DNA of 64,000 nt from an uncultured virus (IMG/VR IMGVR_UViG_3300037067_009972). Taxonomy: Duplodnaviria; Heunggongvirae; Uroviricota; Caudoviricetes. The stretch lies in IMG/VR virus record IMGVR_UViG_3300037067_009972. One strand, written 5' to 3'. Within the stretch, counting starts at the first letter, position 1. Every line of letters begins with the position of its first letter. A program made the position numbers and the translations under genes. Shown here piece by piece: positions 28,240 through 54,295 of the stretch. The notes under the pieces are model-generated. The model made no database searches, was not told the DNA's origin, and worked only from the letters and a program-made list of their open reading frames with translations.

Positions 28240-29307
28240 ATGGATAACCTAACATTATATGCAATTGAGAAACTCGGTGCCAAGGTGTATTTCTTTGGTG
28301 AATGTGTCTGGGCGACAATATTAAAAATAAAAACTACACACTATAAAGTAGCTATCGTTGGCGGGGCGAGAGATAAAATTACCCCTCTACTCGATAATTA
28401 TGAAGTGCGGCCGGTAAAATTAACATTGCAAGTAAAAGACGGAGATGTACTTTATGAATTTTATTTCCCCAAAGATGTGGACAGTATACCGCTCGATCCT
28501 ATACCGCTTAACAATGCAATACTGAGTCTAGACGGAAAAGTATATAGAGCTGAAGATCTGCAAAATAAGACTATCCGTGCAGATATCTCCGTTTTTCTAG
28601 ATTACCCAGAAGAGTTATTACGAATATGTCGTATTGCGGCGCAAACAAAATTTACAGTAGATGTAACAACGTGGATTGCGATGTTAGCCCATTCAAGACT
28701 TATAAAAAATGTAATAAAATTTAATTCTAAATATATAGGACAACAACTTCATTTAATATTAATGTCGAGTTCTCCAAAAACAGGTTTTAATCTAATGCTG
28801 GAAACTGGATTGCTTAATTATATATTTCCAGAATTGGCCCAATGTAACAATATAAGTCAAACTCGCCGAGGGCTAGACACCAACGTATTTAAACATATAT
28901 TATTGGCTCTAGAAGCCGCAGAGTTAAATGAACTTATTAGGTGGACAATGTTATTTCATGATATGGCCAAACCAGCTGCATTGGAAATAACGACCGAGGG
29001 TAAAATGCATTTTTTTAAACACGAACAGCTCGGTGCCAAATTAGCAAACGACTATATGACCAAATACGGATTATCTAAAAGTTTAATAGACAAAGTAAAA
29101 CTACTAATAGAAAATCACATGTTTGACGCTGATCCTAAGTTAACTCCGAAGGGGGTTCGACGCTTAATCAAACGAGTTGGCGTGGAGCATATATTTGATC
29201 TCATTAAAGTACGTGAAGCCGATCGACAAGGTTCTCCGGTACCACCTTCTAACAGCAAAATCGAATTATTAAAATCGAAAATAGAAAAAGAGCTAGCCAA
29301 TGTTTAG
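28240..29307 (+). CDS. CCA-adding-enzyme-like protein with degenerate nucleotidyltransferase head and intact HD domain
   Basis: Body motifs LLNYIFPEL, VFKHILLAL, LFHDMAKP, HEQLGA, IENHM, ADRQG; head motif A reads FFGECVWATIL with no DxD. Confidence 0.75.
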   Translation: MDNLTLYAIEKLGAKVYFFGECVWATILKIKTTHYKVAIVGGARDKITPLLDNYEVRPVKLTLQVKDGDVLYEFYFPKDVDSIPLDPIPLNNAILSLDGKVYRAEDLQNKTIRADISVFLDYPEELLRICRIAAQTKFTVDVTTWIAMLAHSRLIKNVIKFNSKYIGQQLHLILMSSSPKTGFNLMLETGLLNYIFPELAQCNNISQTRRGLDTNVFKHILLALEAAELNELIRWTMLFHDMAKPAALEITTEGKMHFFKHEQLGAKLANDYMTKYGLSKSLIDKVKLLIENHMFDADPKLTPKGVRRLIKRVGVEHIFDLIKVREADRQGSPVPPSNSKIELLKSKIEKELANV

Positions 29308-40050: not shown

Positions 40051-40377
40051 GTGGGTATCTTCAAGTTTATGGCAAAAATAAAAGACACCCTACTATTAAT
40101 ACCAGACGAAGAATTACGTGGATGGATTGAAGCGTTTTTAGTTCGAAATTATGGCGAATACTCGCTACAAAATGACGTAGAAACCTGGTACAATGAGCTG
40201 GGGTTAGTTTTACACAAACAACCGTTTTCTGCAGTAAGCACTGGTAAAGGTGGTCTTACAATTCAGGCAGTAACGTCCTATGTAGCTTACGACGATTTCC
40301 AGGGAACGTCAAAATACTTAATATGCTTGTATGGATTAATCTGTAAATTAACTCAAATAGTACTTGACACTAAGTAA
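40051..40377 (+). CDS. hypothetical protein
   Basis: 108-aa ORF. Confidence 0.45.
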   Translation: MGIFKFMAKIKDTLLLIPDEELRGWIEAFLVRNYGEYSLQNDVETWYNELGLVLHKQPFSAVSTGKGGLTIQAVTSYVAYDDFQGTSKYLICLYGLICKLTQIVLDTK

Positions 40378-40392
40378 AATTTTTCGTATATT
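40364..40392 (+). promoter_or_regulatory. strong sigma70 promoter TTGACA-N17-TATATT heading the tRNA array
   Basis: Perfect -35 and 17-nt spacer about 170 nt upstream of the first tRNA. Confidence 0.7.
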
Positions 40393-40566
40393 ATAAACAT
40401 GCAACTCTTAGAACATACATATCGTCCATTTAATAATAAAGGCATTGATACCCAAGTCAGACTTAGCCCTATGGGATGTTTATGTTCACTATCGCTTTGG
40501 TCTCCCGTAGGGCAATAAATACTATCCAAGCTGTTTTCACGTTTTAACTATTTAATGTATCAACTT

Positions 40567-40640
40567 GTCGCTATCTTCTAATAGGTTTAGGAAATCGGTT
40601 TCTCAAATCGATAACATCAGTTCGATCCTGATTAGCGGCA
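40567..40640 (+). tRNA. tRNA-Glu(CTC)
   Basis: Cloverleaf; anticodon arm TCGGT-TTCTCAA-ATCGA; no CCA. Confidence 0.85.
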
Positions 40641-40644
40641 CAAA

Positions 40645-40878
40645 ATGGAACGATACGAAATACAACAACAGGGGTTTCCGACAAAATTTTATAATGTGCG
40701 GAAAAATGATTATGATTATGGATATATTGATATAGCGACAGGTAAAGATGTAATTCGCTATAGCGATAAACTGCATGATCGGGAAGTGTCTGTACGAAAT
40801 ATGTTAGTTATTGGGTATAAATCAGTACCACTATACTTAACATTTAGATTTGAATTACAAGAGAACTCATCGCACTAA
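40645..40878 (+). CDS. hypothetical protein (3' end overlaps RNase P-like RNA)
   Basis: 77-aa ORF. Confidence 0.4.
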   Translation: MERYEIQQQGFPTKFYNVRKNDYDYGYIDIATGKDVIRYSDKLHDREVSVRNMLVIGYKSVPLYLTFRFELQENSSH

Positions 40879-41102
40879 GCGGAGACGCAAGTGAGGAACT
40901 TCAGCTCACATAAAGGAACGGGTAGGAGAGTCACATACAGCGCTGGGTTGTTAACCCGAGAATGCTGACTCGCTTGTACTACTTAGCATGTGTGCAACGC
41001 AAACAGTCTTAGGTCGGCACGTTTCTTGGCCAATGATAGACGGGTAGCGGCCAACAGAGAAATGATGAGATAAAACAAAAAGCTGGGTAAGCTCAGTGAT
41101 TA
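40845..41102 (+). ncRNA. rnpB: RNase P RNA-like ribozyme, minimal (no P18, reduced S-domain)
   Basis: CR-I GAGGAACTTCAG, CR-IV AGAGAAATGA, CR-V ACAAAAAGCTGGGTAA; P2, P3, P4 (bulged U), P5, P6 pseudoknot and P15-17 all pair. Confidence 0.85.
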
Positions 41103-41107
41103 CTAAT

Positions 41108-54224: not shown

Positions 54225-54295
54225 AGGTCGTAAAGGTTACGGTAGCCGGCAAGCCTCCAAATCTTGTAGACGGGGTTCAATTCCCCGACGACCTG
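54225..54295 (+). tRNA. tRNA-Trp(CCA)
   Basis: AGGTCGT/ACGACCT acceptor, G73, loop CTCCAAA. Confidence 0.8.

Follow-up and report, generated by a model that had tools for sequence, protein, structure and literature searches.

Ribonuclease P (RNase P) RNA is regarded as a strictly cellular or organellar housekeeping ribozyme. A literature search, with subscription journals and supplements outside its reach, found no paper on a phage-encoded form, and none is described in the accessible portions of PMC11143913 or PMC6582537. For the bacterial RNA of Escherichia coli (M1 RNA), the accessible portion of PMC11143913 reports that the GGU of the joining region J16/15 pairs with the tRNA 3' end (RCCA), and that deletion of helix P18 lowers the cleavage rate more than 3000-fold. 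Here we describe a 64,000-nucleotide (nt) stretch of DNA from an uncultured virus of the Caudoviricetes (IMG/VR record IMGVR_UViG_3300037067_009972; the window), in which plus-strand positions 40853-41101 encode a conserved structured RNA of 249 nt that alignment, covariation and profile homology identify as a real homologue of RNase P RNA. An earlier reading made from the sequence alone (the sequence-only reading) had proposed a minimal RNase P RNA of about 255 nt at the head of a tRNA array; both the length and the placement needed correcting, the element being 249 nt long and coming after the first tRNA of the array.

Judged from sequence comparison, the RNA keeps the full catalytic domain, with the P1-P2-P3 arm, P4 and its bulged U, P5, P15-P17 with the GGU loop, P6, and the conserved regions (CR) CR-I, CR-IV and CR-V, and each element that the sequence-only reading had listed was recovered at or beside the position assigned to it. 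All parts lie on the plus strand. P1 brings together a 5' strand at 40853-40863 (AAUUAC, AA, GAG) and a 3' strand at 41092-41101 (CUC, A, GUGAUU), a pairing based on comparison; its P1a complements differ in each lineage according to a script check. P2, proposed as CTCATC (40866-71) with GATGAG (41064-69), is present and extends to 7 base pairs (bp; 40866-40872 with 41063-41069), some of which covary. The P3 hairpin follows at 40873-40893, with a CACU/AGUG base and a GCG-GAGA-CGC tip. CR-I (40893-40906) consists of J3/4 GAGGAA (40893-98) and the 5' strand of P4, A-C-U-[U]-C-A-G-C-U, with its bulged U at the position of E. coli U69; the helix, confirmed together with P3 and the GAGGAA junction, comprises 8 bp in the E. 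coli register (40898-40906 with 41081-41088), leaving U40901 (or U40900) unpaired. The 5' strand of P5 (40907-40911) pairs with 40990-40994, and here the proposed helix held while its 3' strand, placed at ATGTG (40988-92), had to be moved to the comparative register GTGTG (40990-94). The P6 pseudoknot pairs GGAACG (40915-40920) with CGTTTC (41020-41025) in the loop of P17, as proposed.

The segment at 40990-41000 carries the P5 3' strand, J5/15 (CAA) and the P15 5' strand (CGC), and is followed by J15/16 AAACA (41001-41005). P16, lengthened from GTC/GAC to GUCU/AGAC, encloses P17 (GGUCGG/UUGGCC) within 41006-41041, and J16/15 GGGUA (41042-46), which contains the GGU of the proposed loop L15, continues into the P15 3' strand GCG (together 41042-41049). 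CR-IV, AGAGAAAUGA, occupies 41056-41069 and overlaps the P2 3' strand UGAUGAG; the form in which it had been proposed, AGAGAAATGA at 41056-65, was found in place, as was the ACAAAA of CR-V. The latter region (41075-41088) combines J2/4 ACAAAA (41075-80) with the P4 3' strand AGCUGGGU. P18 is absent, as had been claimed, since only 6 nt (GCCAAC) separate the P15 3' strand from CR-IV. Also absent is the specificity domain (S-domain) of P7-P14 with CR-II and CR-III, in whose place stands a single 61-nt hairpin (40922-40982) retaining only a P7-like stem, GUAG/CUAC, followed by an asymmetric loop of GA opposite GCUUGUA, a GAGUCA/UGACUC stem and a variable tip. The "P12-like" GGGTT/AACCC pairing of the sequence-only reading lies in this hypervariable tip, occurs in the window lineage only and found no support.

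We compared these parts with E. coli rnpB, taken from an annotated genome (L043:5217-5593, minus strand). J3/4 and the P4 5' strand read GAGGAA-AGUCCGGG in E. coli (61-74, GAGGAAAGUCCGGG) and GAGGAA-CUUCAGCU in the window (40893-40906), and J2/4 with the P4 3' strand reads ACAGAA-CCCGGCUU (347-360, ACAGAACCCGGCUU) against ACAAAA-AGCUGGGU (41075-41088), an agreement of J2/4 at five of six positions. J5/15 is CAA in both RNAs (the E. coli context being GGAG-CAA-G at 243-250), J15/16 is AAACA against AAAUA (254-258), and J16/15 is GGGUA in both (41042-46 and G291-A295). CR-IV matches E. coli 328-337 (AGAUGAAUGA) at eight of ten positions, and the window decamer is also found in a Pelagibacter rnpB locus (L047). 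Because the two P4 strands have the same lengths as in E. coli, the helix falls in the register of E. coli 66-74/353-360, with eight pairs and a bulge at U69. Its sequence, however, is recoded: ACU[U]CAGCU/AGCUGGGU in the window, AAG[U]CCGGG/CCCGGCUU in E. coli.

The gene for ribonucleotide reductase in the window served as a lead to related phage contigs, and homologues of the element were found in two further lineages (L004, 2169-2449; L003, 9255-9523, identical to L006) at blastn identities of 61-67%. In both of these the element lies between tRNA-Glu(CUC) and tRNA-Glu(UUC), the same neighbours as in the window; it begins 3 nt after the tRNA in L003 and ends 3-6 nt before the next tRNA in all three lineages. 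The three-lineage alignment has invariant single-stranded junctions, J15/16 AAACA among them, and variable helices. When the helices of the sequence-only reading, slightly extended, were placed on this alignment (60 pairs, 178 cells), 97.2% of the cells were paired and 15 of the 60 pairs had changed on both sides, compared with only one or two such pairs after the 3' partners were slid by 1-3 columns; in 500 shuffles, a value as high as that observed never occurred. The compensatory changes fall in P2, P5, the P6 pseudoknot, P7, the next stem, P15, P16 and P17, and P1, P3 and P4 are invariant among the three lineages. P17 of L004 is weak, with three of its six pairs (3 bp) formed. The S-domain remnant measures 61 nt in the window, 110 in L004 and 93 in L003, and is predicted in each to be a single irregular hairpin.

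From about 0.33 in the surrounding sequence, GC content rises to 0.46-0.50 over 40850-41100, and no long open reading frame (ORF) is present in 40879-41107. The minimum free energy of the element is no better than that of shuffled sequences (z = -0.30; a fold of equal or greater stability was reached by 71 of 200 shuffles), and thermodynamics alone would therefore miss the structure.

Distant relatives were sought with a cross-clade motif of 19 bases (GGGTA, 2-3 N, GGCCA, NN, AGANAAATGA), which retrieved nine stretches from viral contigs: the three known lineages and six new ones (L194, L196, L197, L200, L201 and L202). The latter are miniature RNase P RNAs of 198-301 nt, encoded on viral contigs that measure 39-527 kb; all six can be aligned column for column with the window RNA. 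Over 37 well-aligned pairs (333 cells; P1a was left out because of a column offset in the MAFFT alignment), 96.7% of the cells of the nine phage RNAs are paired and 25 of the pairs have changed on both sides. P4, invariant among the three closer lineages, is paired in 72 of 72 cells, with compensatory change in six of its eight pairs and the bulged U unchanged throughout. Changes on both sides were also found in P1b (3/3 pairs), P2 (4/7, with standard pairs in all nine RNAs), P3 (2/3), P5 (3/5) and P15 (2/3). The complement of P6 is maintained in all nine RNAs by differing sequences, such as AAGGAACG/CGUUUCUU, GGGAG/CUCCC, CCGCUUA/UGAGCGG and GUGCUC/GAGCAU. Six unpaired cells of P16 trace to L196 and L197, where MAFFT shifted the helix by one column. 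Invariant across the nine lineages are the bulged U, the GAGGAA and ACA.AA junctions, J5/15 CAA, and GGGUA, and the P3 tip varies in length, with stable tetraloops in relatives (UACG in L004, GUAA in L200, GAAA in L201). Because similarity to Rfam models is absent for the window RNA, covariation became, on the terms that the sequence-only reading had set for itself, the deciding test; the compensatory changes of the two alignments, in all variable helices and both pseudoknots, the M1-like junctions, and the chain of homology described below bear out its catalytic domain with a reduced S-domain and no P18.

The asymmetric loop of the S-domain remnant (window 40922-40929/40972-40982; GA opposite G-Y-U-U-G-Y-A) is conserved in nine of nine phage RNAs, and the part distal to it varies. 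As a speculation, this loop might be a candidate minimal replacement for the contact with the tRNA elbow.

Contigs from four public DNA runs (X2, X3, X5 and X6, sampled from landfill, freshwater and sediment) added relatives of 40830-41120 that differ in the P3 tip and in the strands of P4, and it was these that suggested the cross-clade motif. Their P3 tip is a stem with a GAAA tetraloop, and the variant P4 strands would again be mutually complementary but come from different runs, which makes them a hint only. Among the seven public runs listed for the stretch, none that contains it is an RNA run. Exact-motif scans returned only copies of the three known lineages (three of 33 matches in viral contigs were real, and three of three in metagenomes were identical copies), with no match in bacterial genomes or in a further scan of viral contigs. 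Neither the window stretch, the element nor L202 found a blastn match among 50,697 cultured and deposited phage records, and a covariance model of the phage 3' halves (R1) matched nothing in the more distant records G003 and G004.

The relatives provide the connection to described families. Five of the six match RNaseP_bact_a (RF00010): L194 (72.1 bits, E 6e-21), L202 (63.8 bits, E 4e-18), L201 (57.3 bits, E 6.7e-16), L196 (47.5 bits, E 1.3e-12) and L197 (44.4 bits, E 1.5e-11); the sixth, L200, matches the truncated form RNaseP-T (RF02357; 37.1 bits, E 2.2e-5). The Rfam alignments map P1, P2, P3, CR-I, P5, J5/15, P15-P17, GGGUA, CR-IV and CR-V, bypass the S-domain through local ends, and place 1 nt where the model has the 23 nt of P18. 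As the relatives had been picked by a motif in the 3' half, circularity was controlled for with the parts outside that motif. An nhmmer profile made only from what precedes the motif in the six relatives found window positions 40865-41013 at E 6.5e-8, with the next match at 0.5, and a covariance model of their 5' halves (R2) ranked window 40854-40929 at the top of 12 matches, aligned end to end. Because both of these searches find the element, the homology of the window RNA to RNase P RNAs recognised by Rfam is, at the level of sequence, significant and not a product of the retrieval route.

Several results weigh against this identification or against a fully active RNA, and they are gathered here. 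None of the relatives reaches the gathering score of the family that it matches (44-72 bits where RF00010 requires 100, and 37 where RF02357 requires 60). The match to R2 is weak when taken alone (14.9 bits, E 0.14 for 64 kb), and the nhmmer profile of the relatives' sequence downstream of the motif did not match the element. Searched directly with Rfam at E<=10, a 1-kb slice around the element gave two tRNAs and five chance-level matches but no RNase P family, and neither did the two closest relatives (L012/L022); RF00010 found nothing in four related virus records, against matches in 11 of 14 control genomes. The window RNA has no match at the RF00010 gathering score of 100 bits, and on that score is not a member of the family; it has none to RF02357 (gathering score 60 bits) either. 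In the reverse direction, R1 gave nine chance-level matches on the E. coli rnpB locus, none of them at rnpB, and nhmmer profiles of bacterial rnpB 3' ends (46 type-A ends, from 69 delimited sequences among 80 loci, a set biased by having been chosen throughout for a canonical CR-I 17-mer) had their best match on the phage RNA at E 44. Model searches in a single step thus fail to join the window clade to bacterial RNase P, and the prediction of the sequence-only reading that the divergent P4 would hide the RNA held for the covariance models. Other points concern function. P4 positions 67-68 are CU in place of the bacterial AG. No tRNA lies within 500 nt of any of the six distant relatives. Of 22 phage tRNA genes delimited by Rfam, 21 do not encode the CCA with which the GGU could pair. 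Finally, because the S-domain and P18 are missing, and given the effect of P18 deletion in E. coli, full activity of the window RNA is not to be assumed.

The source of the window is a large phage genome that also encodes ribonucleotide reductase, a helicase, a DNA ligase, a baseplate protein and a tRNA nucleotidyltransferase (CCA-adding enzyme; 28240-29307, plus strand; phrog_2244, E 6.7e-17). The tRNA array extends over 40567-62492, entirely on the plus strand, with 25 genes found by ARAGORN and three by Rfam only, about 28 in total. At the gathering score, Rfam returned 22 matches on the window, all of them tRNAs. Only one of the 22 tRNA genes delimited in this way encodes a 3' CCA, and 21 have a C right after the discriminator base. 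The upstream neighbour of the RNA is tRNA-Glu(CUC) at 40567-40641 (plus strand; Rfam and ARAGORN), and the downstream neighbour, tRNA-Glu(UUC) at 41108-41180 (plus strand), begins 6 nt past it. The latter is one of the three tRNA-like genes seen by Rfam and missed by ARAGORN (54.5 bits; Glu UUC by its anticodon loop), the others being a 91-nt gene of the long-arm type at 42412-42502 (44 bits) and a marginal one at 54226-54294 (30.4 bits); conversely, six ARAGORN tRNA genes were missed by Rfam at the gathering score.

Between tRNA-Glu(CUC) and the RNA lies a small conserved ORF of 77 amino acids (40645-40878, plus strand), whose final codons overlap P1/P2 and whose stop codon falls within P2/P3. 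It is 39% identical (29/74; pairwise E 2e-21) to an 82-amino-acid ORF of L004 (1951-2199), has no counterpart in L003, where the RNA follows so soon after the tRNA, and found no match in a PHROG search. Upstream of the first tRNA, a sigma-70-like sequence (TTGACA-17-TATATT, 11/12; 40364-40392, plus strand) is a consensus match only, in a scan that gave 8 sites against 4.7 +/- 2.4 in shuffles; it is a possible start for a joint transcript of the tRNAs and the RNase P RNA. No terminator-like site was found in 40300-41400. For many of the phage ORFs that surround the array, no family was assigned. The complete 215-kb relative (CheckV 100%) contains the RNA element once; the 3'-half model gave one more match there, but a weak one (L166, at G001:C1:186539-186650; 16.4 bits, E 0.645) that is probably due to chance. 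RnpA (PF00825) was found in none of four related virus records, this complete genome included.

In our judgement the element is a phage copy of RNase P RNA, derived from the bacterial type-A form, that probably works with the RnpA protein of the host on phage pre-tRNAs. The RNA would be transcribed together with the flanking tRNA genes and freed by the cuts that mature their ends, a mode of release that we infer because only 3 nt separate the RNA from the preceding tRNA in L003 and only 3-6 nt from the following one in all three lineages. It would then assemble with host RnpA through the conserved CR-IV/CR-V/P3 region, a host cofactor being suggested because the complete 215-kb relative lacks RnpA, and would cleave the 5' leaders of the roughly 28 phage tRNA precursors. 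In this way tRNA maturation could be sustained while the cell is flooded with phage tRNA transcripts or when host RNase P RNA declines, and with the S-domain lost the tRNA elbow might be read weakly or by another element. A stronger form of this proposal might as easily prove wrong as right: that the RNA is a fully working, naturally minimised ribozyme of the bacterial type, which hijacks host RnpA, processes pre-tRNAs lacking CCA, is excised by its own tRNA-processing activities, and represents one clade of a broad class of phage RNase P RNAs.

An RNA derived from RNase P RNA might no longer cleave and might serve instead as a decoy or regulator, binding host RnpA or pre-tRNA through the conserved core and thereby titrating or redirecting host RNase P or protecting phage precursors. 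In favour of this stand the absence of P18 and of the entire S-domain, the >3000-fold effect seen in E. coli when P18 is deleted, the unusual CU at P4 67-68, and the failure to find a phage RnpA in the complete relative. We consider such a decoy unlikely, as the nucleotides that are invariant across nine lineages make up the catalytic core, whereas a protein sponge would need the protein-binding part only. Moreover, natural RNase P RNAs without an S-domain are active, as are constructs consisting of the catalytic domain only when combined with protein. The missing PF00825 would also suit a catalytic RNA that is independent of host RnpA and acts alone or with a phage protein replacing both RnpA and the S-domain contacts, and the phage ORFs without family near the array, including the conserved 77-amino-acid ORF that abuts the RNA in two of three lineages, offer candidates for such a protein. 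This appears quite improbable: the RNA conserves CR-IV, CR-V and P3, the regions through which bacterial holoenzymes make their RnpA contacts; L003 lacks the abutting ORF; and we know of no RNA-alone activity in vivo for bacterial RNase P RNA.

Two further explanations would deny the RNA an RNase P-related function altogether. Its strong reduction and its invisibility to Rfam are what a decaying, functionless relic of a captured host rnpB might look like, yet 97% of the pair cells are kept intact by compensation although the lineages differ at about a third of positions, the place between the same two tRNAs is conserved, and the junctions are invariant while the helices vary; we regard decay as very improbable. 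That the likeness to RNase P RNA is a coincidence in an unrelated structured RNA would agree with the failure of direct model-to-sequence tests against bacterial RNase P in both directions, but is scarcely credible given the same double-pseudoknot topology, six junction motifs in E. coli order and spacing, and profile homology at E 6.5e-8 to RNAs that score as RNaseP_bact_a down to E 6e-21.

Should the proposed role of a phage-borne RNase P RNA working with host RnpA hold, it would add a tRNA-maturing catalytic RNA to the translation toolkit of phages, beside their tRNAs and CCA-adding enzyme. The phage forms also amount to natural deletion experiments, in which evolution has given up P18 and P8-P14 but kept the geometry of P4 together with its bulged U, as well as the GGU loop and CR-IV/CR-V, and in which the sequence of P4 can be rewritten provided that its pairing and bulge persist. 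Phage RNase P RNAs are probably under-counted because the window clade is invisible to Rfam, and a dedicated family model would improve phage annotation.

Set beside known systems, the window RNA has P1-P6 and P15-P17 in the order and topology of class A (RF00010), with which it also shares the type-A hallmark of P5, a P15-P16-P17 arm and a P6 formed between J5/7 and the P17 loop. It differs in its length (249 nt, against 377 in E. coli), in the lack of P18, in the replacement of P7-P14 by the 61-nt hairpin, and in its location, within the tRNA array of a phage. The type T RNA of Thermoproteaceae (RF02357) is similar in its size of about 200 nt, its catalytic domain and its near lack of an S-domain, but the window RNA has the bacterial type-A features of P15-P17 with a GGU loop and of P6, and the type T family is archaeal, with archaeal protein partners. 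Among phages, the tRNA cluster of T4 includes two stable RNAs of unknown function, species 1 and species 2, which are located and processed together with the tRNAs; we know of no RNase P-like core in either. Theta ribozymes, minimal HDV-like RNAs that adjoin phage tRNA genes and have been tied to tRNA maturation in the accessible portion of bioRxiv 10.1101/2023.06.13.544163, are likewise phage-encoded and linked to tRNAs, but are small self-cleaving RNAs of another fold and not a trans-acting RNase P.

Parallels are also offered by other viral RNase P RNAs in IMG/VR, which are phage-borne and often lie between tRNA genes. A canonical CR-IV/CR-V pattern marked 27 viral loci, and 15 of the 20 that were scanned matched RF00010 above its gathering score, at 113-335 bits; some of the short contigs among them may be host DNA. 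RNaseP_bact_a matches flanked by runs of tRNA genes were found in L172/L190 (321-645), L188 (328-645), L185 (439-645, 207 nt), L192 (585-939) and L177 (289-646), on contigs whose size is given both as 100-190 kb and as 20-190 kb. Phage RNase P RNAs that are visible to Rfam therefore exist beside a clade that is not. The visible ones keep the canonical P4, in contrast to the window clade, with its recoded P4 and longer P6, which escapes Rfam. The six RNAs retrieved by the motif resemble the window RNA in their reduced S-domain, their lack of P18 and their GA/G.UUG.A loop. RNase P RNA itself is well known; the one described here is carried by a phage, minimised, recoded in P4 and beyond the reach of current family models.

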